From contig NZ_JAESVA010000004.1 in the NCBI RefSeq assembly GCF_020621385.1, positions 458,691 through 482,690 of the forward strand: a DNA stretch of 24,000 bases. The letters are read 5' to 3'. Made by a program: the position numbers and the translations under genes. Below, piece by piece: positions 2,252 to 22,112 of this stretch. Below the pieces are notes generated by a model. That model did no database searches, was not told where the DNA came from, and saw only the letters and a list, made by a program, of their open reading frames with translations. Positions within the stretch are counted from its first letter, which is position 1; the number at the start of each line of letters is the position of its first letter. This DNA comes from Acidisoma cellulosilyticum (GTDB lineage Bacteria; Pseudomonadota; Alphaproteobacteria; Acetobacterales; Acetobacteraceae).

Positions 2252-2255
2252 GGCG

Positions 2256-2972: not shown

Positions 2973-3861
2973 CGGACGTCTCCCTTCTATCGCGGGCGAT
3001 GTCGAGAAAAGCCTCCACCGCGAGGCCGGGCAATGCCTCTGGCTGGGCCATGCCGAGCGCTTTCCAGACGTCATACCCGTCCTGCGCCTTGCCGAAGCGA
3101 GCGAGCCGGGTGGTCAGACGGTGTTGCTCGGCCTCCAGCACGGTGCGCGTGAGGGGCTTTCCGGCCGCCAGCGCCGCGACGGTCGCCGCACGAAATCCGG
3201 TTGCGTCATCGTCCACGAAATCATCCGCGCCGCCGATCAGGTAACGGTGCTTGCCGCCCATGGTGCGCCAGACGAAAGCGCGGTCGCGACTGTCGAATTC
3301 CTCGATCCCACGATTGGTCTCGATCACTTCCGGCCCACTGACGCTGATCCGTCCTTGTTCCGAGACGATGAGGTGCGAACAGCAGCCAGCGATGATCCCG
3401 CCGCCGCCATAGCAGCCGGCGCGCCCGCCGATGAGGCCGATGACGGAACATCCGGCCGTACGGGCCTCGACGATCGCGCGGATGATTTCGCTGATCGCGA
3501 GTTCGCCTGCATTCGCCTCCTGCAGACGGACGCCACCCGTGTCGAACAGAATGACGACATCCTGACCGAGTTTCCGCGCTGCTCGGAGAAGGCCGGTCAG
3601 TTTGGCGCCATGCACTTCGCCGAAGGCGCCGCCCATGAAGCGGCCTTCCTGGGCAGCAACAAGAACGGATTTACCGCTGAGTTTGGCACGGCCGACGATG
3701 ATACCGTCATCGAACTGCCGGGGCAGATCGAACAGGCCGAGATGCGGCGAGGCTTCACGCGCTTCAGGCCCCAGAAACTCTTCGAAACTGCCGTCATCGA
3801 CCAGCGCCGCCAAGCGCTGCCGGGCCGTCGCTTCGAACCAGCTCACAGCAAGGTTGCTCAT
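2959..3861 (-). CDS. mdcD: Malonate decarboxylase beta subunit MdcD (carboxyltransferase component)
   Basis: 300-aa ORF with acetyl-CoA carboxylase beta-like carboxyltransferase sequence (GGAFGEVHGAKL, FDTGGVRLQEANAGE, GGRAGCYGG). It has an ATGA overlap with the mdcC stop. Confidence 0.92.
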   Translation of the reverse strand: MSNLAVSWFEATARQRLAALVDDGSFEEFLGPEAREASPHLGLFDLPRQFDDGIIVGRAKLSGKSVLVAAQEGRFMGGAFGEVHGAKLTGLLRAARKLGQDVVILFDTGGVRLQEANAGELAISEIIRAIVEARTAGCSVIGLIGGRAGCYGGGGIIAGCCSHLIVSEQGRISVSGPEVIETNRGIEEFDSRDRAFVWRTMGGKHRYLIGGADDFVDDDATGFRAATVAALAAGKPLTRTVLEAEQHRLTTRLARFGKAQDGYDVWKALGMAQPEALPGLAVEAFLDIARDRRETSDDAR

Positions 3862-4172
3862 GCTTCGGGCTCCTCGATCATGCGCAGCCCCTGGGCGAGG
3901 CGCAGCGCCACCATGTCCGGTCTGGCGCCACCATCATTGATGGAGATGCGCAGGCCACCGGCCCCGCGCGCCACAAAATCGCCGATCACGGCTTCCCACA
4001 CAGCGCGGAAGCCATGGGCGGCCGTCGCGATGTCTATCGCACAAATGTCGGTATCCGCTGTCCGCTCGACCAGGACTTCAAGATTGCCCGAGGCGACGAC
4101 GCCGACGATCGCCTGCCGTCTTGCCCCTGCCGCCGGACGTGGAGTTTTGAGGGTAAAGGAGAGTTCTTCCAT
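3858..4172 (-). CDS. mdcC: Malonate decarboxylase delta subunit MdcC (acyl carrier protein)
   Basis: 104 aa. GVVASGNLEVL contains the serine that carries the 2'-(5''-phosphoribosyl)-3'-dephospho-CoA prosthetic group in MdcC/CitD. A perfect GGAGG SD lies 6 nt upstream and overlaps the mdcA TAG. Confidence 0.92.
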   Translation of the reverse strand: MEELSFTLKTPRPAAGARRQAIVGVVASGNLEVLVERTADTDICAIDIATAAHGFRAVWEAVIGDFVARGAGGLRISINDGGARPDMVALRLAQGLRMIEEPEA

Positions 4173-4181
4173 CGGTGCCTC

Positions 4182-5834
4182 CTACCAGTTCCGGAAACGG
4201 CTGGGCGGCTTGTACAGGCCACCTGACGCCAGCATGAGATCCTTGATCGAGCGGGCTGCGAGCAGGCTGCGATCTGCATCCAAGGGATTGATCCCCAGAT
4301 CCTCGGGGCGCTGGATGATCTTCCGCTCCCGCAGACGCTCAACCATCTTGCGGTCCCTTTGCCGCCCGATATCGGTATAGCCGGCGACCCCGCGGATGGC
4401 CTGCTCACGCTCATCCGTGCTGCGGCACAGCAGCAGATTGGCGATGCCTTCCTCGGTGACGATATGGGTCACGTCATCGCCGTAGACCATGACGGGGGCG
4501 AGATCGAGGTTGAGCTTTTGTGCCAGGGCCAAGGCGTCCAGCTGTTCGACGAAGAGCGGGACATTCTTGTCGCCGAACGTCTCGCCAATCTGCACCACCA
4601 GCTTGCGGCCGCGTCGGAGTGGCGCGGGGGAGGTGATATCGGCTTCCGCGCCGGCTTTCAGCCAGGGTTCGCTCGGGTGGCGGCGGCCATGCGGATCAGA
4701 CCCCATATTCGGTGCGCCGCCAAAGCCGGCGATGCGGCTGGTGGTGACGGTCGAACTATGGCCCGCGAGGTCGATCTGCAGGGTCGAGCCGATGAACATG
4801 TCGCAGGCATAAAGCCCCGCCGTCTGGCAGAAGGCGCGGTTGGAACGGAGCGAACCGTCGGGCCCAGTAAAGAAGACATCCGAGCGCGCTGCCACATAGT
4901 CCTCCATGCCGACTTCCGAGCCGAAGGAATGGACCTGCTCGACCCAGCCGGCCTCGATCGCCGGGATGAGCGTCGGATGCGGATTGAGCGCGAAATGGGA
5001 GCAGATCCTGCCCCGCAGGCCGAGCGCCTCGCCATAGGTCGGCAATAGCAGTTCGATCGCCGCCGTGCTGAAGCCGATGCCGTGGTTCAAACGCTTGATG
5101 CCGTAGGGTGCATAAAGACCCTTGATGGCAAGCATGGCGGTCAGGATCTGCGTCTCCGTCACGGCCGCCGGGTCGCGGGTGAACAAAGGCTCGACATAGA
5201 AAGGCTTTTTGGCGTCGACCACGAAATGGACAAGGTCGCCGGGGATATCGACGCGCGGCACGCGATCGACGATCTCACCCACCTGGGCGATGACAAGCCC
5301 GTCCTTGAAGCTCGTCGCTTCCACAACCGTCGGCGTGTCTTCCGTATTGGGTCCCGTATAGAGATTGCCCTCGCGATCGGCAGAGACGGCGGCGATGAGC
5401 GCGACATTGGGCGTCAGGTCGATGAAATAGCGCGCGAAAAGCTCAAGATAGGTATGGACCGCGCCGAGCTCGATCTGCCCGCCGAACAGCATCCGCGCGA
5501 TGCGCGCGGATTGCGGGCCGGAATAGGAAAAATCGAGGCGTCGCGCGATCCCCCTATCAAAAAGGTCAAGATGCTCCGGCAAGACGACGCCCGACTGGAC
5601 CATATGAAGGTCATTTATCCGCGCGGGTGCGGCATTCGCCAAAGCCCTGGCCAGAAGGTCGGCCTGTTTCTGGTTATCGCCTTCGATGCAGACGCGGTCG
5701 CCCGGACGGATAACGGCTTCCAGGAATTCGGTCAGACGTTCGGCTGGGATCATCTTCCCGTCCGCGACCGTCTGACCGGCGGCAATCCGAGCCGCGCGAG
5801 CGGTCTTTTGGTCGTTCCAGTTTTTCATGGCCAT
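4182..5834 (-). CDS. mdcA: Malonate decarboxylase alpha subunit MdcA (acetyl-S-ACP:malonate ACP transferase)
   Basis: ORF 4182-6215 trimmed to ATG 5834 (MAMKNWNDQKTARAARIAAG...; ATG 5828 is an alternative). The roughly 550-aa product shows MdcA-like sequence end to end (CIEGDNQKQADLLA, GFGGAPNMGSDPHGRRH, LYKPPSRFRNW). The 127 upstream codons are Pro/Arg-rich, cross the divergent intergenic region and overlap the regulator gene. Confidence 0.95.
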   Translation of the reverse strand: MAMKNWNDQKTARAARIAAGQTVADGKMIPAERLTEFLEAVIRPGDRVCIEGDNQKQADLLARALANAAPARINDLHMVQSGVVLPEHLDLFDRGIARRLDFSYSGPQSARIARMLFGGQIELGAVHTYLELFARYFIDLTPNVALIAAVSADREGNLYTGPNTEDTPTVVEATSFKDGLVIAQVGEIVDRVPRVDIPGDLVHFVVDAKKPFYVEPLFTRDPAAVTETQILTAMLAIKGLYAPYGIKRLNHGIGFSTAAIELLLPTYGEALGLRGRICSHFALNPHPTLIPAIEAGWVEQVHSFGSEVGMEDYVAARSDVFFTGPDGSLRSNRAFCQTAGLYACDMFIGSTLQIDLAGHSSTVTTSRIAGFGGAPNMGSDPHGRRHPSEPWLKAGAEADITSPAPLRRGRKLVVQIGETFGDKNVPLFVEQLDALALAQKLNLDLAPVMVYGDDVTHIVTEEGIANLLLCRSTDEREQAIRGVAGYTDIGRQRDRKMVERLRERKIIQRPEDLGINPLDADRSLLAARSIKDLMLASGGLYKPPSRFRNW

Positions 5835-5837
5835 TCG

Positions 5838-5941
5838 CTTTGTATGCATAATTGGCTTTCCATGAGCTATATGTATACATGAGCGACTGAAATGTCGATT
5901 GTGTCGTGCATTGCTGTCTTTGTATGGGTGCGATGCATGCA
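5838..5941. promoter_or_regulatory. Divergent mdcA / GntR-regulator control region with palindromes (candidate GntR/FadR-type operator sites)
   Basis: Perfect 10-bp palindrome ATGTATACAT at 5871-5880, flanked by direct repeat CATGAGC (5861-5867 and 5878-5884). 8-bp palindromes TATGCATA (5843-5850) and TGCATGCA (5934-5941). 9-bp direct repeat CTTTGTATG at 5838-5846 and 5918-5926. The T-GT-N-AC-A core fits the general GntR-family operator pattern. Locally AT-rich in a GC-rich window. Confidence 0.4.
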
Positions 5942-5956
5942 AGTGCGGAGGTCGGG

Positions 5957-6643
5957 ATGGTCGATGCGATAGAGGATGGGGCGTCAGAGGATACAGAAGG
6001 CGAACCGCTTCTGCTCTCCGAGCGGATACGCAATGCGTTGACGGACGAGATCGCGGCAGGCGAGTTGTTGCCGGGTGCCGCGCTTGACGAGCAACAGCTC
6101 GCGAACCGCTTCGGCGCCTCGCGCACGCCCGTGCGAGAGGCTTTGCGGCAATTGGCGGTCTCCGGCCTTGTCGACATCCGTCCCCGCCGGGGCGTGGTGG
6201 TGGCCCGCATGACACCGGAGCGCGTGATGGAGATGTTCGAGACTGTGGCGGAGATTGAAGCGCTCTGCGTGCGCCTGGCCACTTATCGCATGACGCCTGC
6301 GGAGCGGGGGCGACTGCTCGAACTGCATGACGAGGCGTCTCGCGCGGCAGAGGCCGGGGATGTGGATGCCTATGACGGCATCAACGCAGCTTTTCATGAG
6401 GCTTTGTATAACGCGACGCATAATGAATTTCTGGCGGAGCAAGCGATCGGCCTGCGCGGCCGGCTGAATGGGTTCCGGCGGACGCAGCTTCGGCACAAAG
6501 ACCGGCTCGACCGTTCGATTGCCGAGCATGGCGCGATCCTCGCGGCTATTGCAGAAGGCGACGGGGATACCGCTTCCCGACGGATGCGCGCCCATATGCT
6601 GAATGCCGCGATCGCATTGCGGCGTTACCTGGAAGATCGCTGA
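5957..6643 (+). CDS. GntR-family (FadR subfamily, FCD domain) transcriptional regulator, MdcY-like candidate regulator of the mdc operon
   Basis: ORF 5906-6643 trimmed to ATG 5957, preceded by GGAGG (5947-5951) at 5-nt spacing. N-terminal wHTH (LANRFGASRTPVREALRQLAVSGLVDIRPRRG) plus a C-terminal FCD-like helical domain. Divergent from mdcA. Confidence 0.85.
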   Translation: MVDAIEDGASEDTEGEPLLLSERIRNALTDEIAAGELLPGAALDEQQLANRFGASRTPVREALRQLAVSGLVDIRPRRGVVVARMTPERVMEMFETVAEIEALCVRLATYRMTPAERGRLLELHDEASRAAEAGDVDAYDGINAAFHEALYNATHNEFLAEQAIGLRGRLNGFRRTQLRHKDRLDRSIAEHGAILAAIAEGDGDTASRRMRAHMLNAAIALRRYLEDR

Positions 6644-6906
6644 TCGATTACTCTGCCAATGCCCGTAGCGATGAAGCCAAGCGATCTCGTCAAACGGCGC
6701 ATCGCGCTTCCTGCTCTTTCGATGGTGTAACGCTCTAGCCGAACAAACTGGCTGAATGGATGGTCGTCCCCCAGGACGATGGTGTCATTGACCGGAGTTC
6801 GGGCAGGTCCGGCTCCCAAAATTAGGTCGTTATTCGCGATTGGTCCGATGGGGGATAGGTTGTCAGATGCGAAGATGCTAATTTGTTCGTCAAGTTGAGG
6901 AACAAA

Positions 6907-8118
6907 ATGACATTCGATAATCCATCCCTTCCGGCGGCACCGATCAACCGCCGCATCTCCCTCCGCACCGTCATGGACGCGCTGCTCCACCAAGGACCGA
7001 TATCGCGGGCGGATATCGCCAAAGTGACGGGATTATCGAAGCAGACCTCGTCCGAAGTGGTCCGCATGCTGGAGGAGGGGGGCTGGATCCAGAGCATCGG
7101 CAATACCAAAGGGGCGGTCGGGCGCAGCGCGGTACTGTACGAATTGCGGCGTGACCGCGGGATGGTCGTGGGCGTCGATCTGGGCAGCAACAAGCTCCAT
7201 GCGGCCCTCGTTAATCTGGCCGGCGATGTGGTGGCGGAGGAGCTTGCCGTGACGGACGCGCAAGGCGGCATGCAGGTATTGCAGCAGGTGGCCGAACTCG
7301 TCACCAAACTCGCCAACCGTTCGAAGCCTGCCGATGCCACGCTTCTGACCGTGGCCGTCGGCTGCCCCGGGGCGCTTGATCCCACCTCAGGGTCTATCCG
7401 CTTTGCACCCAATATTCCCGGCCTCGATAAGATCGATGCTCTGGGCACGCTCAAGAAAGCGCTGAATTGCCCGTCTCTCACGATTGAAAACGACGTCAAT
7501 CTCGGCGTGCTGGGGGAGCAGTGGTATGGGGCCGCCGCAGGATCTGACGACCTTGTCTATGCCGCGCTTGGCGTCGGTGTCGGGCTGGGCCTGCTGGTGA
7601 ACGGCAAGCTTGCGCGGGGCGCGCATGGAGCGGCCGGTGAGATCGCTTTCCTGCCGATCGGTCCCGATCCCTTTTCGCCGGGAAGTCTGTCCACCGGTAC
7701 CTTGGAGCAGGAGATCGGATCACCGGGCATTTTGCGACGTCATGCGGCCGCCGGCGGTGAGGAGAAGTCTGTCCGGGACATCTTCGATGCAGCACTTCAA
7801 GGATCGTCCATTGCCAAGGCGACGATCGATGAGACGGGGCGACTGCTGGCACTTGGCCTTGCCGCCGTCACGGCACTTCTAGATCCCGCCGTCATCGTAC
7901 TCGGCGGAAGCATCGGCGTTCGCCCGGAATTGCTGGAGCCGGTGCGTCGCTATCTTGCGGCCTGCACGCCACTGCCGCCGCCGGTCGAACCCAGCCGGTT
8001 GGGCACGCGCGCTACCTTGATGGGCGCGGCGGCATCCGCGCTTCACCGGGCGCATAATGAGCTATTCGGCGCGCTGGACCTTGGCGTGGCGTTGAGCCTG
8101 CCTAGGCCAAGCCTGTGA
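6907..8118 (+). CDS. ROK-family transcriptional regulator (N-terminal wHTH plus sugar-kinase-like domain), atypical: lacks the zinc-binding His/Cys motif
   Basis: ORF 6883-8118 trimmed to ATG 6907, with GAGG 6 nt upstream. wHTH sequence LLHQGPISRADIAKVTGLSKQTSSEVVRMLEEGGWI. ROK signature-1-like LGVGVGLGLLVNGKLARGAHGAAGE. The 3' end overlaps the convergent ATPase gene by 17 nt. Confidence 0.85.
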   Translation: MTFDNPSLPAAPINRRISLRTVMDALLHQGPISRADIAKVTGLSKQTSSEVVRMLEEGGWIQSIGNTKGAVGRSAVLYELRRDRGMVVGVDLGSNKLHAALVNLAGDVVAEELAVTDAQGGMQVLQQVAELVTKLANRSKPADATLLTVAVGCPGALDPTSGSIRFAPNIPGLDKIDALGTLKKALNCPSLTIENDVNLGVLGEQWYGAAAGSDDLVYAALGVGVGLGLLVNGKLARGAHGAAGEIAFLPIGPDPFSPGSLSTGTLEQEIGSPGILRRHAAAGGEEKSVRDIFDAALQGSSIAKATIDETGRLLALGLAAVTALLDPAVIVLGGSIGVRPELLEPVRRYLAACTPLPPPVEPSRLGTRATLMGAAASALHRAHNELFGALDLGVALSLPRPSL

Positions 8119-8839
8119 TCATGGAGACGATTTCGTTTCGGGTGACCTCGTCGGTCCGACGAATGCCGATCTGCTCCCCATGGCGCAAAACGCAAATGCG
8201 ATCGGCAAGACGAAAGACCTGATCGAGATTGTGGCTGACGAGCAGGATAGAACGCCGTCGGGCGCGAAGGCCCGCGATGATGGACTCGACTCTCATTGTT
8301 TCCGCGACGCCCAGCGCGGCGGTCGGTTCGTCCATCAATACGAGGTTTGACGCCCATCGCGTGGCGCGCGCGATGGCGATGCCTTGCCGCTGACCGCCGG
8401 ACAGGTCGCGAATAACGGTGCCGGCGGAGGGAATGCGGACATCAAGGTCCTTCATCAGGGCCTCGGTCTCCGCGATCATCCGCCGACGGTCCAATCGTCG
8501 TAGCGGCCCCCGCGTCAATTCACGGCCCAGGAACAGGTTCATGTAAACGGTCTGGCTGTCAGCCAAAGCGAGATCCTGATAGACGACCTGGATGCCGTGA
8601 TGCTGGCTTTCCGCAGGGTCCCGGAAGGAAACGGCTTTCCCCTCTATCACCATGCGGCCCGTGGTCATTGGCTGGACGCCGGAAATGATTTTGACCAGGG
8701 TCGATTTGCCGGCGCCGTTGTCGCCCACCAGCGCCACGATCTCCCCCGGCATGATATCCAGCGAGAACTCCTGAATAGCGGTGATCCCGCCGAACATCTT
8801 ATGGACCGACTGCAGGCTCAGCACGGGCTCGCTGGACAT
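8102..8839 (-). CDS. Sugar ABC transporter ATP-binding protein, single-NBD FrcA-like (CUT2 type)
   Basis: 245 aa with Walker A GDNGAGKST, signature LSGGQRQ and Walker B LVLMDEPTAALG. Collinear by eye with rhizobial FrcA. GGAGG SD 6 nt upstream. Confidence 0.9.
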   Translation of the reverse strand: MSSEPVLSLQSVHKMFGGITAIQEFSLDIMPGEIVALVGDNGAGKSTLVKIISGVQPMTTGRMVIEGKAVSFRDPAESQHHGIQVVYQDLALADSQTVYMNLFLGRELTRGPLRRLDRRRMIAETEALMKDLDVRIPSAGTVIRDLSGGQRQGIAIARATRWASNLVLMDEPTAALGVAETMRVESIIAGLRARRRSILLVSHNLDQVFRLADRICVLRHGEQIGIRRTDEVTRNEIVSMITGLA

Positions 8840-8851
8840 CCTGGCCTCCTC

Positions 8852-10048
8852 TCAGCCTGGCCAGTCTATGGGGCGGCCGAAAGCATCATGGATTGTGCCG
8901 ACGCTCGGATTGCCGGATGAAAGGCCGGCAATGCCCACGACATAAGCGCGGGTGACGAAGGCCTGCGGGCGAAATCCGAAGACGACGCTGTCGCCGATCT
9001 GCGGTGCCCTTGGCCCTTCGACATCGATCATGCCGTAATAATCGATGGCGCTTGGCGGTGGAATCTCGACGCCATGCAGGGTCTCGGGACCTGATGCGGG
9101 CTCACGCGCGACCACGACGTTCATGGCATAATCAGGGAAAACCGGATCGACATAAAGGCCGCCGCCGAAGCAATAGGCGCGGCCGGCATGGATGTGCGAA
9201 ACCTCGCTGAGATAGGCGACTGCCGGGCGTTCGGGCAAATCATGGAGAGCGTGCAGCGGCGTCGTTCCGGTCAGACCATGGCCGGGCTCGCATTGCGTGG
9301 CGCCGTGATCGGCCAGACGCTGCAGGAAGATGGCGGAGTTTGTTCCCGGCGCATTGACCTCGATATCCCGTCTTCCGGACTTGGCGAGGGCTTCGACCGC
9401 GCGCGCCAGCGTGCCAAGGTTATGGGTTGTGTCGGCATCGCCCAGTTCCGGGGAGAACAGCAGGGCAGGGAATGTGGTGATGCCGGCGAAGCGCGCGCCA
9501 GGCAGGGCGTCAAGCGCATTCGCGACGTCGACCACCGTCTCGGCCGGAAATCCGCCCTCATGGCCATTGTAGAACCGATCTCCTGGCGCAAACAGACGGG
9601 CGAGCAATGCCTGTTCACGTCCAGCCGCCTGGTTTGCGGCGGCCGCTTCCGCCGCCTTCTCCCGATTGAAGACCGTCCAATAATCCGGCCGCATCGCGGC
9701 GCCGGCGGCGGCCTCCGCCCGGGGCACCTGAACGAGATGCCCGAGATGCCCGAGGCTCAGGCCAGCCCGAACACAGGCGCGAGCGCATTCCATATCGACG
9801 GCGACCGCGTGGGTTATACCGCCGGCAAGGACCGACCGGCAGAAATCGCCGTTGCGACCCATCTGCTTCGTCATCGCGAAGATCTTGAGGCCCGCGCGGT
9901 CGGCTGCCGCCTTGATGATGGACGCGTTCTCCGCCACGGCATCGAGATCGATGACATAGCTATTGGCGGGGATTTGCCCGGCCTGATGGAAGGCGATCGC
10001 CTGTTCGATGAGAGCCGGATTGCGGCGGCGGAGGACATCAAGAAACAT
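8852..10048 (-). CDS. YhfX-like fold-type III (alanine-racemase-fold) PLP-dependent enzyme, function unknown
   Basis: ORF 8852-10114 trimmed to ATG 10048 (MFLDVLRRRNPALIEQAI...), with AGAGGA SD overlapping the permease stop. Collinear with my recollection of E. coli YhfX (MTKQxGRN with the putative PLP lysine, GHLGHLVQ(V/I)P, EPGH(A/G)LTGT(T/I)P, FGFRxQxFVTR). Confidence 0.75.
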   Translation of the reverse strand: MFLDVLRRRNPALIEQAIAFHQAGQIPANSYVIDLDAVAENASIIKAAADRAGLKIFAMTKQMGRNGDFCRSVLAGGITHAVAVDMECARACVRAGLSLGHLGHLVQVPRAEAAAGAAMRPDYWTVFNREKAAEAAAANQAAGREQALLARLFAPGDRFYNGHEGGFPAETVVDVANALDALPGARFAGITTFPALLFSPELGDADTTHNLGTLARAVEALAKSGRRDIEVNAPGTNSAIFLQRLADHGATQCEPGHGLTGTTPLHALHDLPERPAVAYLSEVSHIHAGRAYCFGGGLYVDPVFPDYAMNVVVAREPASGPETLHGVEIPPPSAIDYYGMIDVEGPRAPQIGDSVVFGFRPQAFVTRAYVVGIAGLSSGNPSVGTIHDAFGRPIDWPG

Positions 10049-10058
10049 GGATTTTCCT

Positions 10059-11042
10059 CTAGCTTCGCTTTTCGCGCAGCGTTGTAGCGACGGCGACGAG
10101 AATGATAAGGCCACGGACCATCATCTGTTCCGCAACCGTCAGGCCCATCAGGATAAGCCCGTTGTTGAGCATGCCCATCAGCAGCGATCCGATCAGCGCG
10201 CCCACGACACTGCCAGTGCCGCCGTTCAATCTTGTGCCGCCGACAATGACGGCCGCGATGACCGTCAGGAGGTCGGAATCGCCGAGCGTATAGCGGGCGC
10301 CGTATAGCCGGCCGGCATAGAGCAAGCCCGCGAGCGCGGCACCCATCGCGCTGATGACGAGAACGCCAAGGCGCAGGCGGTCGACGCCGATACCGGCGGC
10401 GCGTGCCGCGCGATGATTGTCGCCGGTTGCCAGAACATGCGCGCCGAACTTGCTCTCACGGAAGACAAAATGCCCGGTGATGGTTGCCGCTATCGTCCAG
10501 ATCACCAGGGACGGAACGCCGAACAGGCTTCCCGCGCCGAACATGCCTGTAAAGGTCGGGTCGGTCACCGGAATGGAGCGAAGATTGGTCAGCCATCGCC
10601 CCACGCCGGCCAGCAGCCCCATGGATGCCAGGGTCACCAGAAAGGACGGGAGCCTGAGATAGGCGACAAGCGCACCGTTCATCAAACCGATCGCCGCGCC
10701 GGCCGCCAGACCGGCGACGACGCCCAGTTCCCAGACATGGTTCTGCATGGTGACAGCCGCGACGAGCGCCGAAATCGCGACGACCGAGCCGATGGAGAGG
10801 TCGATCTCACCAGCCGTGAGGGCAAAGACCATGCCGACCGCCATGACGGTGATGGGCGCGGTCTCCTGCACGATATTGACGAGGTTGGACCGCGTCAGGA
10901 AACCGTCACCCTGCAATGCCAGGGCAAAAAACGCGAAGATGGCCAGAAATCCGACATAGACGATGTAGCGGCTGGTATCGAGCCTGGCCAATCTGCCGAG
11001 CATGACCCTGGGGCCTTTCTGTTGCGTCACGTCTGACGTCAC
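10059..11042 (-). CDS. Sugar ABC transporter permease (RbsC/FrcC-like, BPD_transp_2 type)
   Basis: 327 aa, multi-pass hydrophobic, with GEIDLSIGS and GGTxLxGGxG motifs typical of CUT2 permeases. GTG start 10 nt after the SBP stop. ATG 11003 is an alternative. Confidence 0.9.
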   Translation of the reverse strand: MTSDVTQQKGPRVMLGRLARLDTSRYIVYVGFLAIFAFFALALQGDGFLTRSNLVNIVQETAPITVMAVGMVFALTAGEIDLSIGSVVAISALVAAVTMQNHVWELGVVAGLAAGAAIGLMNGALVAYLRLPSFLVTLASMGLLAGVGRWLTNLRSIPVTDPTFTGMFGAGSLFGVPSLVIWTIAATITGHFVFRESKFGAHVLATGDNHRAARAAGIGVDRLRLGVLVISAMGAALAGLLYAGRLYGARYTLGDSDLLTVIAAVIVGGTRLNGGTGSVVGALIGSLLMGMLNNGLILMGLTVAEQMMVRGLIILVAVATTLREKRS

Positions 11043-11052
11043 GACCGCGATC

Positions 11053-12129
11053 CTATTTAAGCGCGTCGATGACCGATTTCGGTGCCTCGCGATGCAGCGA
11101 CGCCTCGTAGCCGGCCAGCAGATTGGCTTTGGTGATGGTCATGGCCGGCGCGACAATAAAGCCGGGGCAAGGCTTGCCGAGCAGGCCATAGGCCGCGGCG
11201 GTTGCCATGGTACGCCCGAGTTCATAGGTCGCGTCGGCGACGATCGCAGCCACATTGCCGTTCTGGGCCATGTCGAGCGCGATGGGTTCGGACAGATCCA
11301 GCGTCACGATCTTTGTATGCTTGTTTCCAGCGGCACGCAGAGCGGCCAGAACACCCTCCGCAGGCTCGGCCCAGGTGACATAGATACCGTCGAGACCGGG
11401 CGTCTTCGTCAGCATGGCATTGGCGATGTCTTCGGCATTGGCCGGATCGGAAATGCCCTGCTGCTCGTTGATGGTGATATTCTTGTATTGATCCTCGATG
11501 GTGGATTTGAAGGCCTGATCGCGCTGGTTGGTGACGTAATATTGGGCATCATGGAAAATATAGCCGACCTTGCCCTTGTCGCCGATTGCGCTGGCAAGCG
11601 CATCGGCCGCGCGACTGCCCATGGCATGCAGGTCGTCGGTCACGATCGCGACGTAATCCTTGCCGGCCTTGTAGCCGTTGGGAACATTGGACAGAAAGAC
11701 CAGCTTCGTGCCGTCCGCCAGGGCCGGACGGAAGGCCGCGGCCGAGCCGACGGGATCGAGCGGCAGCGACAGGATGACGCTCGGCCGCCGTGCGGTGATC
11801 GTCTGCACGTCATCCATCTGCTTCGCCGAGTCAAAGCCTGCATCCGTCGTCGCTATGACCTTGATGCCGAGCTTGGCGAATGTATCGGTCGCACCGGCGG
11901 TAACGCCGTTGGTGAAATCGGACGTGGTGTGCCAAACGAAAGCGGCCGTGTAATGACCAGCCTTAAGCTTCGCGATCTCAACCGGCGTGAGAGACAGGGC
12001 GCTTGACGGTGTGGCGCTTTCGCCATGCGGTCCGACAGTCGCGGGGGCAGCGGCATAGACCTCAGTCGTGTAAGCAAGACCGAGGAGAATGGCGGCGGTC
12101 GCGAGAAGTTTTGAACTCAGTCTTGTCAT
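11053..12129 (-). CDS. Periplasmic sugar-type ABC substrate-binding protein (PBP type I, RbsB-like)
   Basis: ORF 11053-12225 trimmed to ATG 12129 (MTRLSSKLLATAAILLGLAYTTEVYA/AAP), with AGGAG SD 7 nt upstream. It has a signal peptide and a periplasmic-binding-protein-1-like body. Confidence 0.88.
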   Translation of the reverse strand: MTRLSSKLLATAAILLGLAYTTEVYAAAPATVGPHGESATPSSALSLTPVEIAKLKAGHYTAAFVWHTTSDFTNGVTAGATDTFAKLGIKVIATTDAGFDSAKQMDDVQTITARRPSVILSLPLDPVGSAAAFRPALADGTKLVFLSNVPNGYKAGKDYVAIVTDDLHAMGSRAADALASAIGDKGKVGYIFHDAQYYVTNQRDQAFKSTIEDQYKNITINEQQGISDPANAEDIANAMLTKTPGLDGIYVTWAEPAEGVLAALRAAGNKHTKIVTLDLSEPIALDMAQNGNVAAIVADATYELGRTMATAAAYGLLGKPCPGFIVAPAMTITKANLLAGYEASLHREAPKSVIDALK

Positions 12130-12163
12130 CCTATCGCTCCTGTTGATTGGTCCAGCCCCTGCG

Positions 12164-13411
12164 TCAGGCTGTCGTCTGGCCGTAGCTCGCCAAAAAAATC
12201 GCGAGGGCCAAAATGCCGTCTGCATAGGCGCCCAGGCTCACACGCTCTTCCAATGTATGGCAATGGACGAAATCGCCCGGCGAGAAATAGACGACAGGCG
12301 CGCCGCGCGCGGACAGGAACGGGCCTTCCGACCAGCCGGCGCAGGGGCCGATGCGCCCAGCCGCTGGTACCACGCTGCGGATGGCATCGATCAGCATGCC
12401 AATCGCAGGCACAGCCGCGTCCGTGACAAGCGGCGTGCCGCCGATACTGCTGTCGCGTCCCGCTGGATAGCCGAAGGTGACCGTGATGAGATCGTCCGTG
12501 ATCGCGTTTCGCACGACAGTTTCAAGCCGCTGCCGCTCCACCTCCGCGTCCTCGCCCGGGATCAGCTTGCGGATGAGACTGATGCGACAATCGCCGGGCA
12601 CGGCAATATAGCCGCCGGCATTGACGCCGGTGACGACCAGGAAGCCGGGCCCGATCATCGGATCCGACCCTGCGGCGCGGATCTCATCCGATAGCTGCCA
12701 TAGCGCCGTCAGGATGGCATTGCCGGCCTTCAGCGCGTCGACGCCTTGCTCAGGCAAGCCGAAATAGGCTGACTTGCCATTGACCGTTATGTCGCAGATG
12801 AAAAACCCCATATGGGCGGTATAGACATCGAGGCTCGACGGTTCGCCGTAGATGGCGAGGTCGGGTATCGGCCATAGGCCGGTATCATAGACCGGCATCA
12901 GCGCCTTCATGCCCGCACTGACGCCGGACCCTGGCTCCCCACTCTCCTCATCGCCGACGAAGGCCAGTTGCAGGTTGCAGCTTGGCGCGATGCCCGCGCG
13001 GTTGAGAAGGTCGATGGCCGAGAGTGCGGTCGCAATCCCGATCTTCATATCCGCCGTTCCGCGTCCCCAGATCTCCCCATCAACCTCGGTAGCCGCAAAG
13101 GCGTTCGCGCGATCGGTTCCAGCCCATCGCTCCTGCCACCCGCGGACATGCACGGTATCCGTGTGACCCACGAGGAGTACCGTGGGCCGGTCCGACGCGA
13201 TCGAGCGCCTTGCGCGCACATTGAAGCGACCTGTGGCGAAGGCCCATCGCGTGACCTCATCCAGTCCCAGGGTCTGAAGGTCGACTTCCAGCAGCGCCGC
13301 GATGTCATCCTCTTGCCCGGTGACGCTCGGGCAATGCACAAGCCGCTTCAGCCGGTCGATGGCGGCATCCGGATCAAGGGCCGCCTTGAGGCGATCTCTC
13401 AACATGGTCAT
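12164..13411 (-). CDS. M20-family metallo-amidohydrolase (ArgE/DapE/aminoacylase-like)
   Basis: ORF 12164-13444 trimmed to ATG 13411, with GGAGAG upstream. ATG 13405 and the annotated 13444 are alternatives. M20 metal/catalytic motifs LLVGHTDTV, GRGTADMK and VGDEESG are present. Confidence 0.85.
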   Translation of the reverse strand: MTMLRDRLKAALDPDAAIDRLKRLVHCPSVTGQEDDIAALLEVDLQTLGLDEVTRWAFATGRFNVRARRSIASDRPTVLLVGHTDTVHVRGWQERWAGTDRANAFAATEVDGEIWGRGTADMKIGIATALSAIDLLNRAGIAPSCNLQLAFVGDEESGEPGSGVSAGMKALMPVYDTGLWPIPDLAIYGEPSSLDVYTAHMGFFICDITVNGKSAYFGLPEQGVDALKAGNAILTALWQLSDEIRAAGSDPMIGPGFLVVTGVNAGGYIAVPGDCRISLIRKLIPGEDAEVERQRLETVVRNAITDDLITVTFGYPAGRDSSIGGTPLVTDAAVPAIGMLIDAIRSVVPAAGRIGPCAGWSEGPFLSARGAPVVYFSPGDFVHCHTLEERVSLGAYADGILALAIFLASYGQTTA

Positions 13412-13480
13412 CGAACACTCTCCAGCGGGCGGAAGCGACGACACAGGCGCCGCTTCCTTGGTAGGCGAGGATGGGCCGAA

Positions 13481-14896
13481 CTACTCGAAAGCGCGACCCA
13501 TCCCGGTCATGACGGATTTACGGAATCGCGCCAGCCAGAGTGAATAGAGGACACCGAAGACGATCCATATGCCGACGACATAAGGTACGGCCGTCATGGG
13601 GGCGGTGCCACCACCGACCGGAAGGGTCGACATCAGCACGCCCTTCAGCGGCAATAGAAGCAGGAGGGTCGCGATCAGGGGCACAAGCGCATGCTTGATC
13701 CAGCTGAATTCCGCGCCGCGGCGGCGATAGAAGGCAAACAGGCTGGCGCAGATCACGATATAGACGAGCACGATCGCAAGCCCCAGCACGGTACCCGCCC
13801 AGCCATAGACAGTCATCGGATCCCAGGTGAAGCCGAGAATCAGGGTGAGGGCGAGGGAGAGCGCCATATAAAGAACGGCGGCTTTCGCGGGCACCTGGCG
13901 CCCTGAAACCTCCCCAAGCACCGGTGGCAGAACGCGCTCGCGGCCCATGGCGTAAAGGATGCGGATGACGGAGTTGAAACCGGCCAGAAGATTGGCGAAG
14001 ATCGAGTTCAGCACCACGAGCTGGACGACAATGCCGGCGCCGTGACCCCAAAAGGCGTGAAACAACGGGTCCCAGGGATTGCCGCCTTTGTTGATGGCTC
14101 CCAGCACGTCTTTTACATGCGACGGCCCGTAGCCGGTGACGGCCGCCAAGGCGGACACAAGGTAGAAGATACCGATACCGCCCACGCACAGCATCAGCGC
14201 GCGAGGGATATTATGCTTGGGGTCGCGGGTTTCTTCACCCATGGTCGCGGCACTTTCGAAGCCGACGAACATCAGGATGAACCACAGCACTGCGGTGCCG
14301 ATGCCATTCAGGCTGCCGGATGCTGGTGCGCTGGCCGGATTGAACGTCGTCAGGGCAATGCCTTGCCCGCCGCCATGAATAAGAACGGTCAGAAAAAACA
14401 GCATCATCACGACAATTTCGACGAGCAGCATGACGATCGCGACTTTGACCGAGACCCCGATACCGCGACAAGCGAGAAACAGGATGAGCGCTGCCACGAT
14501 CACGGAATAGACAGCCCAGGACAAGCTGATGCCAGTTATCTGGGCCAAGAACTGCGCCAGAAAATAGCCGATTGCGGCCAGCAGCATCGGCGCCAGCATC
14601 GCATAGCCGCCGACCAGCAGCCAGCCCGTGACAAATCCGACCTTGGGACCCAGGCCGCGCACGGCAAAGGTATAGGCAAATCCGGCGGTCGGAATTTGCT
14701 TTGCGAATTGCGCGATGACGAAGGCGATAAAGAAAGTGGCAACCATGGCCAGGATCAGGGCAAAGCCGATGGCATTGCCGGCATTCTGGATGCCAAGCCC
14801 GGTATTGAAATAGACCGAGGTGGCCGGCCCCATGAAAGCGCAGGTCGCGGCAATGGCCCCGAACAGGCTGATAGCATTTTTGCGCAACTCAGCCAA
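13481..14896 (-). CDS. APC-superfamily amino acid (or amine) permease
   Basis: 471 aa, about 12 hydrophobic segments, and FVGFESAATMGEETRDPKHNIPRAL, which is typical of APC permeases. The start codon is TTG (checked in the sequence) with a G-rich SD-like GGGGGTG upstream. The next in-frame ATG is at codon 22. Confidence 0.88.
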   Translation of the reverse strand: MAELRKNAISLFGAIAATCAFMGPATSVYFNTGLGIQNAGNAIGFALILAMVATFFIAFVIAQFAKQIPTAGFAYTFAVRGLGPKVGFVTGWLLVGGYAMLAPMLLAAIGYFLAQFLAQITGISLSWAVYSVIVAALILFLACRGIGVSVKVAIVMLLVEIVVMMLFFLTVLIHGGGQGIALTTFNPASAPASGSLNGIGTAVLWFILMFVGFESAATMGEETRDPKHNIPRALMLCVGGIGIFYLVSALAAVTGYGPSHVKDVLGAINKGGNPWDPLFHAFWGHGAGIVVQLVVLNSIFANLLAGFNSVIRILYAMGRERVLPPVLGEVSGRQVPAKAAVLYMALSLALTLILGFTWDPMTVYGWAGTVLGLAIVLVYIVICASLFAFYRRRGAEFSWIKHALVPLIATLLLLLPLKGVLMSTLPVGGGTAPMTAVPYVVGIWIVFGVLYSLWLARFRKSVMTGMGRAFE

Positions 14897-14908
14897 GGAA
14901 CACCCCCA

Positions 14909-14959
14909 TTAAGTTCGTCACCCTGACGAATTAACAGTGATTTGAATTCCAAACGCAAG
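14909..14959 (-). promoter_or_regulatory. Putative sigma70-type promoter plus 26-bp near-palindromic operator in front of the APC/M20/ABC/PLP operon
   Basis: On the minus strand: CTTGCG (14959-14954), 18 nt, GTTAAT (14935-14930). Inverted repeat TTAATTCGTCA-GGG-TGACGAA(C)TTAA at 14934-14909. Its core is a perfect 7-bp arm with a 3-nt spacer (14914-14930 on the plus strand), and the outer TTAA arms are offset by one extra base. It sits 13-38 nt upstream of the TTG start. Confidence 0.35.
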
Positions 14960-15147
14960 ACTTAATCATCGCGCCTGCCTGGTCTCACCTGGGATGCCGC
15001 ACGAAGCCAGACATCAAGGAGCGGCCCCTTTGCGCGAACCGGGGAGCCTTCCTCCAAGGCGTAAGCCTCCGCAGCTTGAAGAGCAGACCCACCGCTTGCG
15101 AGGAAACAGCAGGACGGGCAGGGAGCCTATCAAACTTGCAAGCACAG

Positions 15148-16062
15148 CTAGTCCTGACGGTTCGGATGAAGGACAGGACGCGCGGCATCATCGCTTCGCG
15201 AGGCGGCAGCCCGAAACTCCGTCGGGCTTGTTTCGAAGTGTTTACGAAACGCCTTGGCAAAATAATTCGGATCCGCATATCCGCAGGCTGAGGAAATATC
15301 CTTCACACTCAGACTGGCATTCGCGAGAAGGCGGCTCGCCAGGCGCATCCGCTCCCGACAGATGAATTCCGCCGGGGCCAGTCCCGTTTCCGCTGCGAAC
15401 AAACGCGAGAAATGCGCGCGGCTATACCCGGCAACGGCAGCCAAGTCGCTCACATTCAAGGGCTGGTCAAGATTTGTGCGCACATGCCGACAAACACGTT
15501 CGACATCATCGCTGTTCGCTTCGGCGCGGATCGCGTGATGACGACCGAGCACGTCATCGACCAAGCACATCAGCACCGCGTAAGCGATGGCGGATAGGGA
15601 GCCGACAGCATCCCGATCAGCCGCCCGGTCGCCAAGTTCCAGACAGAAGCCTGCCAGACGATCGATGGTGGCGTGATCGAGGGTCAGCACCGGGCCGGCG
15701 GCGCTTTGAATAGCGTAGAGCAGCCGCAATGCCTCCTGGCCGGTCAGCCCGATCCAGAAGAAGGACCAGGTTTCCCCGGCCTCAAGCCAATATCTGTGCG
15801 TGTGCGGGATGGTGACCAGCATGGTCTGGCCGGGCGCGACGCGATGGAATTGGCGCCCGAAGCGCAATCGCCCGCAGCCGCTGATCGTATGTTGTAATAC
15901 GGCGAAAGGGAGCGGCCCGCGTTTCCGCCCGTCGAAACTATAGCCCGGCCCCACGGCCTCTTCGAGGCCGACGGTCGTCGGCATCACATGCAGCCGGCCG
16001 CGCCGCCGTGGTGCCGAGACGGTGGTCCGGAAGGCGCCTCGCTCGATGAGTGCGTTCAGCAC
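15148..16062 (-). CDS. AraC-family transcriptional regulator (N-terminal cupin-like sensor, C-terminal double HTH)
   Basis: ORF 15148-16119. I favour GTG 16062, preceded by GAGGGG at 7 nt and by the onset of high GC3. ATG 16107 and TTG 16119 are alternatives. C-terminal AraC signature: LAAVAGYSRAHFSRLFAAETGLAPAEF...ISSACGYADPNYFAKAFRKHFETSPTEFR. Confidence 0.85.
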   Translation of the reverse strand: MLNALIERGAFRTTVSAPRRRGRLHVMPTTVGLEEAVGPGYSFDGRKRGPLPFAVLQHTISGCGRLRFGRQFHRVAPGQTMLVTIPHTHRYWLEAGETWSFFWIGLTGQEALRLLYAIQSAAGPVLTLDHATIDRLAGFCLELGDRAADRDAVGSLSAIAYAVLMCLVDDVLGRHHAIRAEANSDDVERVCRHVRTNLDQPLNVSDLAAVAGYSRAHFSRLFAAETGLAPAEFICRERMRLASRLLANASLSVKDISSACGYADPNYFAKAFRKHFETSPTEFRAAASRSDDAARPVLHPNRQD

Positions 16063-16175
16063 AATTTTACCCCTCGAAGCACAGCTTTCTTCCTGCGGAA
16101 CGGGCATGATGTGTGTCAAGTTTGTCTTGCTGACAAGGCGCCCGAAGAGGCTGGCCGAACAAAGAGGGAGGGCTC

Positions 16176-17672: not shown

Positions 17673-17766
17673 ACGGCAAGGCGCTCGGCAGGGCGCCTCC
17701 GCGCTGGCCGATGAGGAGGCGTTAGACCTCCGGGCCTCGACCATAAATGGGGAAAAGGAAACCTTC

Positions 17767-19035: not shown

Positions 19036-19042
19036 GCGCAAC

Positions 19043-20029: not shown

Positions 20030-20030
20030 C

Positions 20031-20876: not shown

Positions 20877-20921
20877 TTCCCGATCATCGTGGGACGCCCA
20901 TCCGGAGAGCGGCGTGGTCGT

Positions 20922-21992: not shown

Positions 21993-22011
21993 CGCGCAAC
22001 CTTAGCTTTGT

Positions 22012-22056
22012 CTTGACTTGCTCACCACTCCGATCATAACGTCGTAAACGTTTACG
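22012..22056 (+). promoter_or_regulatory. Putative promoter (CTTGAC-N17-CATAAC) with a perfect 14-bp LacI-type palindromic operator just downstream
   Basis: CTTGAC at 22012-22017, a 17-nt spacer, then CATAAC at 22035-22040. CGTAAACGTTTACG at 22043-22056 is a perfect palindrome with the central CG characteristic of LacI/GalR-family operators. It lies in the divergent lacI/oxidoreductase intergenic region, 56 nt before ATG 22113. Confidence 0.5.
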
Positions 22057-22112
22057 GACTAGTCTCCGCCCAAGGGCAGAAGAGACGGACGCAAAGGCGA
22101 GGGGACGATAGG

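Follow-up and report, generated by a model that had tools for sequence, protein, structure and literature searches.

The E. coli gene yhfX (b3381) encodes an orphan protein with a solved structure (PDB 4KBX; C-terminal domain PF21279), and our literature search found no paper that assigns a function to YhfX proteins. In its classic context, found in E. coli, Bacillus (B. thuringiensis) and Cetobacterium, it is surrounded by the other yhf genes in the order yhfZ-yhfY(PRD)-yhfU-yhfT-php-yhfS-yhfX-yhfW. In E. coli this cluster adjoins frlABCD, the fructoselysine operon, which combines an APC permease, a GlmS-like SIS enzyme and a sugar kinase for an amine-bearing sugar derivative and itself contains no PLP enzyme. 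A route that does employ one is described in Pseudoalteromonas, where N-acetylglucosaminate from oxidised chitin is degraded through OngB, OngC and KdgK; of these, OngB is a D-aminoacylase of the amidohydrolase type, and OngC clusters with D-Ser deaminases and D-Thr aldolases; uptake is by an SSS-type transporter, and RidA is present alongside KdgK (PMC9537276).

Here we analyse a YhfX homologue encoded in a 24,000-nucleotide stretch of Acidisoma cellulosilyticum DNA (the window). It is 39% identical to E. coli YhfX over its full length and has the same two-domain fold, and like the E. coli protein it has no assigned function. Its partners are instead a ROK protein, an M20 hydrolase, a CUT2 ABC system and an APC permease, and none of the classic neighbours (PRD protein, DUF2620, YhfT, Php, YhfS, YhfW) is found in the window. 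The conserved neighbours of such genes in several phyla suggest a hitherto undescribed route of amino-sugar breakdown.

A YhfX-family gene inside an ABC importer operon

The gene for this 398-residue fold-type III PLP enzyme occupies positions 8852–10048 of the minus strand, from an ATG at 10048 to a TGA at 8852–8854. It lies between the genes for an ABC permease (10059–11042, minus strand; BPD_transp_2, RbsC/AraH/GguB-like by Pfam and NCBIfam) and a sugar-type ABC ATPase of 245 residues (8102–8839, minus strand; Pfam ABC_tran and NCBIfam). The permease stop codon, TAG at 10059–10061, leaves a gap of 10 nt before the YhfX ATG and is spanned by the GAGGA Shine-Dalgarno motif of YhfX within TAGAGGAAAATCCATG; the ATPase ATG at 8839 lies 12 nt past the YhfX TGA and is preceded by GAGAGGAGG. 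The gene order (binding protein, permease, YhfX, ATPase), both gaps and the overlap of the Shine-Dalgarno motif with the permease stop are as the sequence-only reading described them.

Upstream on the same strand are the genes for a Peripla_BP_4 periplasmic binding protein (11053–12129; CUT2 or ribose-type by Pfam and NCBIfam), which likely starts at the ATG at 12129 and continues into the signal peptide MTRLSSKLLATAAILLGLAYTTEVYA; for an M20 (ArgE/DapE-type) metallo-amidohydrolase, a predicted deacylase (12164–13444; Pfam Peptidase_M20 and M20_dimer, TIGR01910 153 bits), in which H94, D96, D132, E166, E167, E201 and H396 are conserved among 69 orthologues; and, as the first gene of the unit, for an APC-superfamily permease (13481–14896; Pfam AA_permease/AA_permease_2). 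A ROK-family regulator with an N-terminal winged HTH (6883–8118, plus strand; Pfam ROK and HTH_24/MarR) is inverted here and converges on the ATPase gene with a 17-nt overlap; it is orthologous to the ROK gene that leads the operon elsewhere (40–51% identity, ~70 loci). A consensus scan of 6600–16200, uninformative for a GC-rich genome, returned no sigma-70-like site, and spurious antisense ORF clusters produced by crude ORF calling in these GC-rich loci were disregarded.

The Peripla_BP_4 binding protein, BPD_transp_2 permease and sugar-type ATPase together characterize a CUT2 importer, with an atypical ATPase: it has one NBD and matches the N-terminal half of the XylG/RbsA/YtfR models (NCBIfam, profile positions ~1–240 of ~500), whereas the RbsA/XylG models have two. 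The search for a close solved structure of the binding protein returned none, with 2ioy the best PDB match (E 1e-14); since its PDB relatives are all remote (ribose, arabinose and allose binders, E 1e-14 or weaker), they do not allow a ligand to be named.

Domain profiles and structure prediction identify the window gene as a genuine YhfX-family member. Ala_racemase_N (PF01168, 59.7 bits) and YhfX-like_C (PF21279, 82.4 bits against a cut-off of 27) both score above their cut-offs, the match to 4KBX covers residues 1–393 (E 2.9e-76), and the AlphaFold2 model (pLDDT 87.8), a check that the sequence-only reading had proposed, superposes on 4KBX with a Foldseek TM of 0.90. That reading had also placed the PLP lysine in an MTKQ motif, and the alignments agree: K61, which follows barrel strand 1 in AMTKQ (the region reads AMTKQMGRN), does not vary among 25 close or 39 diverse family members and aligns with the lysine of RPHIKTHK in the genome's own DSD1-type protein. 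This is presumably the lysine that binds PLP in the DSD1/DTA family. A shallow YhfX alignment compared by hhalign with the genome's Alr and DSD1-type proteins paired only 20–31 columns, so that the PLP-lysine region was aligned with the family HMM with filters off, by which Alr still remained unaligned (E 0.17). Ten residues, K61, R65, H104, R151, E254, H285, Y299, Y337, R360 and R367, are invariant even when classic-type members are included, and four of them (R65, R151, R360 and R367) are arginines.

Similarity to the other enzymes of this fold is more distant. D-threonine aldolase, DSD1-type D-serine dehydratase and alanine racemase share the TIM barrel and beta-domain (TM 0.56–0.68), the first two at the level of fold only (TM 0.65–0.68), although the PLP lysine is at the position equivalent to that of the DSD1-type enzyme. 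The C-terminal domain of the window protein is PF21279 rather than PF14031 or PF00842; neither D-ser_dehydrat (PF14031, with its metal site) nor the PHxKTHK and KANAYGHG-type motifs are present in it. Judged from motif and predicted strand, with no superposition, the window protein reads C-E254-P-G where the genome's own Alr reads A-R-P-G and where fold-type III comparators have R-x-G. A glutamate at the position contacting the pyridine nitrogen is typical of decarboxylases of this fold, and alanine racemase uses arginine; its presence here neither proves nor excludes racemase chemistry.

Most database records label such genes 'alanine racemase' or 'predicted amino acid racemase', and the Ala_racemase_N domain is indeed present. 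That the window gene encodes a plain alanine or broad-spectrum amino-acid racemase is nevertheless extremely improbable. The protein has no match to Ala_racemase_C (PF00842), which carries the second catalytic base; the pyridine-nitrogen arginine of the Alr/DadX RPG motif is replaced by E254; the YhfX family profile reaches the genome's Alr only at the E value given above; NCBIfam gives no equivalog match; and the conserved neighbourhood is of sugar type. Two genuine, complete Alr genes with Ala_racemase_C elsewhere in the genome also speak against a housekeeping role of this kind, which the sequence-only reading had named as a possible refutation.

Conserved partners across phyla

Of 80 alphaproteobacterial loci, 71 keep YhfX between permease and ATPase in this order, with median spacings of 12 and 11 nt, and because these related loci keep the order with such tight spacing, the arrangement exceeds chance. 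The embedded gene is therefore not peculiar to one genome. The usual alphaproteobacterial order is ROK-M20-SBP(-SBP)-permease-YhfX-ATPase (~70 of the 80 loci), and ~30 loci have a second binding-protein paralogue. A stoichiometric tie between YhfX and the importer, as first suggested from the window, is not required: an Acidimicrobiales locus reads permease-ATPase-YhfX, and APC-type modules exist without any ABC system.

These APC-type modules bear out the co-occurrence of YhfX with an APC permease that the sequence-only reading pointed to. Homologues of the window's APC permease adjoin YhfX in Actinomycetota, Chloroflexota and Bacillota (loci L114, L115, L116 and L117 among them), always without M20, and the permease next to YhfX in Embleya is 40% identical to that of the window. 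M20 goes with the ABC form (the alphaproteobacterial loci, L096 and L077) and is missing from all six APC-only modules, a distribution that fits a deacylase exposing the primary amine needed by a PLP enzyme. The window is the sole locus among 81 alphaproteobacterial loci compared that joins APC and ABC/M20 genes in one operon; this favours the view that the PLP enzyme is supplied both by the APC permease and by the ABC importer with M20.

YhfX is often accompanied by a sugar kinase, of the ROK type or, in L001 and L077, of the PfkB type, the latter being ribokinase-like and not KdgK-like. APC-type modules often add a ROK sugar kinase and a GlcN-6-P deaminase, either NagB-II-like or bona fide NagB-I; both genes are found in the modules of Embleya, Ktedonobacteraceae and Phaeacidiphilus. 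The SIS proteins that accompany YhfX are NagB-II-like (161–275 bits on NF046059), and in 16 of 80 alphaproteobacterial loci a double-SIS gene of this kind (267–275 bits) adjoins the operon. In one metagenomic APC-type module this role falls to a bona fide NagB-I (TIGR00502, 289 bits versus a cut-off of 236.9), so that two unrelated types of GlcN-6-P deaminase fill one slot. In all, a GlcN-6-P deaminase and a sugar kinase are encoded with YhfX in L082 and 15 other alphaproteobacterial loci and in L085, L114, L116 and L117. No NagA, RidA or glycosidase gene was seen in modules whose neighbours were scanned or read. The window's own operon contains neither kinase nor deaminase; the genome has a NagB-I-like gene on another contig (193 bits, below the curated cut-off) and nagA also elsewhere, and a close NagB-II was not found in it.

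The module is present in at least 565 species-level genomes, from bacteria of soil, the rhizosphere and the sea, and frequently resides on plasmids or chromids; we propose that it has spread horizontally. The operon is also carried by Ruegeria sp. TM1040, whose YhfX orthologue is TM1040_RS01765, and by Sinorhizobium fredii NGR234. All 13 sequences sampled from ROK/M20/ABC/APC-type contexts form a single clade (SH-aLRT 95), to which the classic yhf type does not belong, and the two kinds of context occupy different halves of the family tree.

Candidate substrate and chemistry

These partnerships suggest an amino sugar as the substrate, rather than an amino acid freed from a conjugate. The sequence-only reading had argued from the proximity of yhfX to frl in E. 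coli that the family may act on amino-acid moieties released from glycated or otherwise conjugated substrates. In its explicit form, YhfX would racemise, epimerise or eliminate on the amino-acid part of an Amadori or Heyns compound or of an O-glycosyl-serine, leaving the sugar part to be phosphorylated and deglycated. Such a substrate would be both sugar-like and amine- or amino-acid-like, as expected where one module relies on both a CUT2 ABC importer and an APC permease; M20 enzymes act on N-acyl amino acids; the GlmS-like SIS proteins include the deglycase FrlB, with FraB and GfrE as further examples; and beta-elimination on an O-substituted serine matches the kinship with D-Ser dehydratase and D-Thr aldolase. 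The links to frl itself do not hold up, however. The window's APC permease is no FrlA orthologue (only 24% identity over 160 residues, E 4e-4); the SIS partners are nearer NagB-II than FrlB, to which they are 22% identical; the bona fide NagB-I of one module releases ammonia and no amino acid; the yhf cluster and frl are separate, convergent transcription units in E. coli; and the window protein and the classic yhf-cluster type fall into separate clades. In addition, PLP cannot bind an alpha-glycated amino acid through its secondary amine, and CUT2 binding proteins usually take monosaccharide-sized ligands. We consider this explanation quite unlikely.

YhfX is quite possibly, if not yet probably, the enzyme that stays constant at the core of a catabolic module which has spread horizontally and serves a hexosamine-like (amino-sugar) nutrient. 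From the partner genes we infer the class of substrate, the sequence in which the steps follow and a chemistry of the epimerase kind. The CUT2 importer would bring in an N-acylated form, from which the M20 amidohydrolase would release the primary amine, and the APC permease would import the free-amine form directly. YhfX would form a Schiff base with the freed amine via K61 and then effect a rearrangement at the amine-bearing carbon, upstream of GlcN-6-P deamination; the simplest such reaction would be a racemase-type 2-epimerisation from a mannosamine-type to a glucosamine-type sugar, before or after 6-phosphorylation. A sugar kinase and then a GlcN-6-P deaminase, encoded in the operon in other genomes and presumably elsewhere in the window's genome, would yield fructose-6-P and ammonium, and the ROK protein may act as a sugar-sensing repressor.

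The more specific proposal that the ROK-linked YhfX clade is a PLP-dependent hexosamine (or hexosamine-6-phosphate) 2-epimerase, an activity so far undescribed, is conceivable but doubtful, and we know of no precedent for a PLP-dependent epimerase acting on free hexosamines. Against the hexosamine reading as a whole count the restriction of the deaminase to the 16 alphaproteobacterial loci noted above and the lack of kinase and deaminase in the window's own operon, in a genome with no close NagB-II and a NagB-I-like gene below the curated cut-off. M20 ArgE/DapE-type enzymes and APC permeases normally handle carboxylate-bearing substrates, and together with the four invariant arginines this makes a sugar amino acid or a phosphorylated substrate a better fit than plain mannosamine.

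Two alternatives take up this carboxylate. An unlikely one, our initial hypothesis, makes YhfX a deaminating lyase analogous to OngC: an N-acyl-2-amino-2-deoxy-aldonate such as N-acetylglucosaminate would be imported and deacylated by M20, YhfX would convert the product to 2-keto-3-deoxygluconate with loss of water and ammonia, and the pathway would be completed by a kinase and KDPG aldolase. A zwitterionic sugar amino acid would be a fitting substrate for an APC permease and an M20 enzyme and would agree with the invariant arginines; D-threonine aldolases and related beta-hydroxy amino acid enzymes come next after 4KBX in structural similarity; a PfkB kinase is paired with YhfX in two loci; and a published precedent exists, in which GlcNAc1A is processed by a deacetylase, then by a PLP deaminase of fold-type III and KdgK (PMC9537276). 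We demoted this glucosaminate-dehydratase idea because NagB-type genes and ROK kinases were found in the modules: it leaves the recurrent GlcN-6-P deaminases of two unrelated folds without a role, and the usual kinases are of the ROK type, the PfkB kinase itself not resembling KdgK. Furthermore, YhfX lacks the D-ser_dehydrat C-terminal domain, and modules whose neighbours were scanned or read show no RidA or aldolase gene. A search for literature on glucosaminate ammonia-lyases found only work on the unrelated fold-type I enzyme DgaE.

In the other alternative, the substrate is a substituted glucosamine with a carboxylate, and YhfX would eliminate or exchange the group beta to its amine, for example converting muramic acid to glucosamine and lactate with the amino group kept. 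This would jointly explain the amino-acid-type APC permease, the preference of M20 enzymes for a nearby carboxylate, the invariant arginines, the supply of GlcN to kinase and NagB, and the absence of NagA. It is purely inferential, the modules contain no lactate-handling gene, and we know of no beta-replacement by a fold-type III enzyme; we regard it as very unlikely.

The constant partners of YhfX narrow the candidate substrates to free or N-acylated hexosamines and closely related sugar amino acids; should the 2-epimerase proposal hold, the family, including the orphan E. coli gene, would gain its first function. Much of the organic nitrogen in soil is in amino sugars, and the wide carriage of the module suggests that it may be a common route of amino-sugar recycling.

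Relation to described catabolic routes

The frl operon resembles the YhfX modules in its combination of APC permease, GlmS-like SIS enzyme and sugar kinase, but FrlA and FrlB are remote relatives only, and the YhfX modules lack FrlC and FrlD; the window contains no PfkB (FrlD-type) kinase. With the Ong route the modules would share a logic, namely import of an N-acetylated compound, deacylation, and action of a fold-type III PLP enzyme on the freed amine (PMC9537276). The window's predicted deacylase is of the M20 class, unlike OngB, and the modules have ROK kinases and GlcN-6-P deaminases where the Ong route has RidA and KdgK; neither of the latter is encoded in the window, which sets it apart from the Ong system as described in PMC9537276.

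Canonical amino-sugar catabolism (NagC/NagK/NagA/NagB, with NanK/NanE for ManNAc) likewise employs a ROK regulator and a ROK kinase, and like it the extended YhfX modules end in a GlcN-6-P deaminase, NagB-I or NagB-II. They differ in having no NagA and no NanE, in an M20 enzyme that replaces the deacetylase, and in the inserted PLP enzyme, and deacylation would precede phosphorylation. If our reading is correct, M20 deacylation, epimerisation at the amine-bearing carbon, phosphorylation and deamination would constitute a new route that bypasses NanK, NanE and NagA.

The YhfX operon and its surroundings

In the window, the gene for YhfX, a fold-type III PLP enzyme (398 aa; ATG at 10048 to TGA at 8852-8854, minus strand), lies in an operon headed by an APC permease (13481-14896) and continuing on the same strand with an M20 hydrolase of the ArgE/DapE type (12164-13444), a Peripla_BP_4 binding protein (11053-12129, if translation starts at the ATG preceding an evident signal peptide), a BPD_transp_2 permease (10059-11042, stop TAG at 10059-10061), YhfX itself and a single-NBD ABC ATPase (8102-8839). 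The gene for a ROK regulator, whose N terminus carries a winged helix (6883-8118, plus strand), is convergent with the ATPase gene; the 3' ends of the two overlap by 17 nt (8102-8118), which leaves no space for a terminator between them, and no terminator-like hairpin is found at this overlap. At the permease-YhfX junction, TAGAGGAAAATCCATG, a GAGGA ribosome-binding motif spans the permease TAG, 10 nt ahead of the YhfX start, and 12 nt separate the YhfX TGA from the ATPase ATG at 8839, with GAGAGGAGG just before that ATG. ORF and Pfam reading show that the sequence-only reading had accurately described an enzyme gene within a binding protein-permease-enzyme-ATPase order, with these gaps and a Shine-Dalgarno motif over the permease stop.

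Positions 1-6643 hold a malonate decarboxylase cluster, apparently unconnected to the YhfX operon, with a divergent GntR/FCD regulator at 5906-6643; mdcA lies within an ORF at 4182-6215 (minus strand), and its true start is probably internal to that ORF because the Mal_decarbox_Al match (E 6.6e-285) covers residues 132-677. On the other side, an AraC regulator (15148-16119, minus strand) is divergent to a GH4 glycosidase (16176-17672), followed by a CUT1 binding protein and two permeases (17767-20876), a LacI regulator (20922-21992, minus strand) and a GFO/IDH/MocA oxidoreductase (22113-23135); no ATPase gene accompanies the CUT1 set within 15148-23135.

By sequence, the protein clearly belongs to the YhfX family. 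Pfam places Ala_racemase_N at residues 33-264 and YhfX-like_C at 279-383 (82.4 bits, cut-off 27), and E. coli YhfX is a full-length homologue (PDB 4KBX, E 2.9e-76; 39% identity by BLASTP). An AlphaFold model built with 25 homologues as input (pLDDT 87.8, pTM 0.90) matches 4KBX at TM 0.90, while the next structural neighbours, D-threonine aldolases, beta-hydroxyaspartate aldolase, alanine racemases, and D-Orn/Lys and DAP decarboxylases, follow at TM 0.55-0.68 and 12-20% identity; judging from this model, YhfX is a distinct branch within fold-type III. The MTKQ lysine picked out in the sequence-only reading as the PLP lysine holds up on alignment: K61 (AMTKQ) is unchanged in 25 close and 39 diverse family members and pairs, in a family-HMM alignment, with the RPHIKTHK lysine of a DSD1-type enzyme from this genome. 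Also invariant across the family are the polar residues Q62, R65, H104, Q107, R151, Y160, E254, T262, E273, E282, H285, Y299, Y337, R360, Q362 and R367. Past the last predicted barrel strand, YhfX reads C-E254-P-G, the genome's alanine racemase (Alr) A-R-P-G and its DSD1-type enzyme M-R-V-G. The pyridine nitrogen is contacted in fold-type III enzymes by Arg in alanine racemase and by Glu in the EPGR motif of ornithine/DAP decarboxylases, and we take E254, from the motif and not from superposition, to be the counterpart of this position.

YhfX is very unlikely to be simply an alanine racemase, as databases usually name it. The rest of the genome encodes two complete Alr proteins with Ala_racemase_C domains and two DSD1-type enzymes, and YhfX occurs in one copy only; YhfX is not the housekeeping racemase. 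No NCBIfam model gives YhfX a name, E. coli yhfX is annotated as a 'putative PLP-binding protein', and none of the sources searched assigns a function to the family, which does have a solved structure.

Distribution of the operon and its APC permease

Close relatives of YhfX are encoded at at least 565 loci in our survey of one genome per prokaryote species, and we analyzed the best 80, all alphaproteobacterial and 60-72% identical. About 70 of these read ROK-M20-SBP(-second SBP)-permease-YhfX-ATPase, all on one strand, where SBP is the ABC binding protein. The permease-YhfX-ATPase order is kept in 71 loci with median gaps of 12 and 11 nt, so the embedded position is an inherited trait of this operon type and not an oddity of the Acidisoma genome. 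In the window, by comparison with this common form, the ROK gene has shifted to the opposite end and points the other way, and first place is taken by an APC permease gene; a permease of this type is found in none of these best 80 of the at least 565 loci. Some 30 of the 80 (within L002-L071; e.g., L002, 4881-7007) carry two tandem paralogous SBP genes, whose products share ≈50-60% and 60-74% identity with the one SBP of the window, and the sequences hint at two related ligands.

Embedding is not obligatory, as an Acidimicrobiales locus reads permease-ATPase-YhfX and many YhfX modules are without any ABC system. The spread is patchy: YhfX occurs in 3 of 300 evenly sampled Alphaproteobacteria, in none of 8 same-genus genomes and in 1 of 18 same-family genomes, and the operon type is present on 13 alphaproteobacterial plasmids or chromids. 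In the sole same-family homologue (L112/L113, G318:C4:1435219-1436404), a TAG interrupts the reading frame and residues 324 and 327 flank a gap; as the genome is only 62% complete, either a pseudogene or an assembly error could explain this. The YhfX family is small overall, with 226 clusters (50% identity, E ≤ 1e-30) among 1.84 billion representatives. A tree of 110 family representatives groups all 13 ROK/ABC/APC-context sequences in a single clade (SH-aLRT 95), with both classic yhf-context sequences in the opposite half (midpoint root, quick search).

Nine loci provide contexts beyond Alphaproteobacteria. On an Embleya replicon, YhfX comes directly after a permease that shares 40% identity with the one in the window, in the order ROK regulator, APC, YhfX, ROK kinase, NagB-II-like SIS protein; Sciscionella reads ROK-YhfX-APC-ROK kinase and Nonomuraea ROK-YhfX-APC. 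We also searched with the permease only and read four contexts, selected by taxon and extent of contig irrespective of YhfX. A metagenomic contig reads ROK, ROK kinase, YhfX, APC, NagB-I; a Ktedonobacteraceae contig ROK (divergent), APC, YhfX, ROK kinase, SIS; and Phaeacidiphilus ROK (divergent), ROK kinase, APC, SIS, YhfX. Since YhfX turns up in contexts picked irrespective of it, this permease group is a dedicated YhfX partner, and the co-occurrence of YhfX with an APC permease proposed earlier is borne out. Its proposed link to the E. coli fructoselysine (frl) system is not: the permease is no FrlA, with which it shares 24% identity over 160 residues, and the yhf genes of E. coli form a unit of their own that converges on frl. 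In the fourth context, Alicyclobacillus dauci CP104064.1 (L115, 8001-9254), a called permease gene has a faint YhfX-like_C match at its start, a degenerate fusion near an IS605 OrfB gene that, by sequence, looks like a decayed YhfX-APC module.

Partner enzymes and a candidate pathway

A double-SIS gene occurs in 16 of the 80 alphaproteobacterial loci, straight after the ATPase or, in L014, beside YhfX. Its products score 267-275 bits on the NagB-II model, under the equivalog cut-off of 430; their best PDB relatives include GlcN-6-P deaminase entries, and identity to the deglycase FrlB is only 22%. The SIS proteins of Actinobacteria and Ktedonobacteraceae are likewise below the cut-off at 161-199 bits. 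In the metagenomic module, NagB-I, unrelated to SIS, occupies the same slot (289 bits; NCBI equivalog cut-off 236.9). That two non-homologous enzymes would share GlcN-6-P deamination in one module is the strongest clue to a pathway via GlcN-6-P. The sequence-only reading had YhfX act on the amino-acid part of a glycated or glycosylated substrate, a proposal now weakened by this NagB-I replacement, by the remoteness of the module proteins from FrlA and FrlB, and by a binding protein of monosaccharide type.

A ROK-type sugar kinase recurs among the modules (L085, L095, L096, L114, L116 and L117). M20 accompanies the ABC form (alphaproteobacterial loci, L096 and L077) and keeps its metal and catalytic residues in 69 orthologues; none of the six APC-only modules has it. 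In an Acetobacteraceae/Lichenihabitans MAG variant (L001, 1733-9197, and L005), the order is GATase1_like, SBP, permease, ATPase, a 496-aa ORF, a PfkB ribokinase-like kinase in place of the ROK type, and YhfX; the ORF, with a weak, sub-threshold match to CE4 polysaccharide deacetylases, replaces M20, and this other deacylase and kinase appear to serve equivalent roles. No NagA, RidA, glycosidase or aldolase is seen in modules whose neighbours were scanned or read as called genes.

The nutrient looks sugar-like to the CUT2 binding protein and ROK regulator, and amine- or amino-acid-like to the APC permease, M20 and the PLP enzyme. An N-acylated form would enter via the ABC system and M20 would free its primary amine, which the APC permease could also take up directly; YhfX would hold the freed amine as an aldimine, a kinase would phosphorylate the sugar, and NagB would release the nitrogen. 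Since NagB still frees nitrogen after the YhfX step, YhfX is most probably non-deaminating, and the most economical reaction that a PLP enzyme with a racemase fold could run while retaining the amine is to invert the carbon that bears it, which would convert a mannosamine-type to a glucosamine-type sugar, free or as the 6-phosphate. We consider a hexosamine-type catabolic module with YhfX upstream of GlcN-6-P deamination probable and the epimerase step specifically rather unlikely; the module and a YhfX 2-epimerase taken together fall slightly short of an even chance. We know of no precedent for a PLP-dependent epimerase on free hexosamines. A further weak point is that the window operon has no kinase and no deaminase gene; elsewhere the Acidisoma genome holds nagA and a NagB-I-like gene below cut-off (193 bits) on other contigs, and no close NagB-II is found in it.

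A carboxylate- or phosphate-bearing substrate would better suit M20, the APC permeases and the presence of four invariant arginines in YhfX. A rival reading, by analogy with the oxidised-chitin (Ong) route and its fold-type III PLP deaminase OngC, would make YhfX a deaminase acting on N-acetylglucosaminate; it has published precedent (PMC9537276) and would agree with a PfkB kinase and carboxylate-preferring partners, but gives no account of why NagB genes and ROK kinases are present. Purely by inference, YhfX might instead catalyze beta-replacement on a 3-O-substituted glucosamine such as muramic acid, which would reconcile most module features.

Relation to known amino-sugar systems

In regulator, kinase and deaminase the YhfX module is similar to nag/nan amino-sugar catabolism, and in its logic of deacylation followed by a fold-type III PLP enzyme to the Ong route; it equals neither. 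We class it not as a new kind of system but as a probable operon for amino-sugar catabolism whose PLP step is undescribed.
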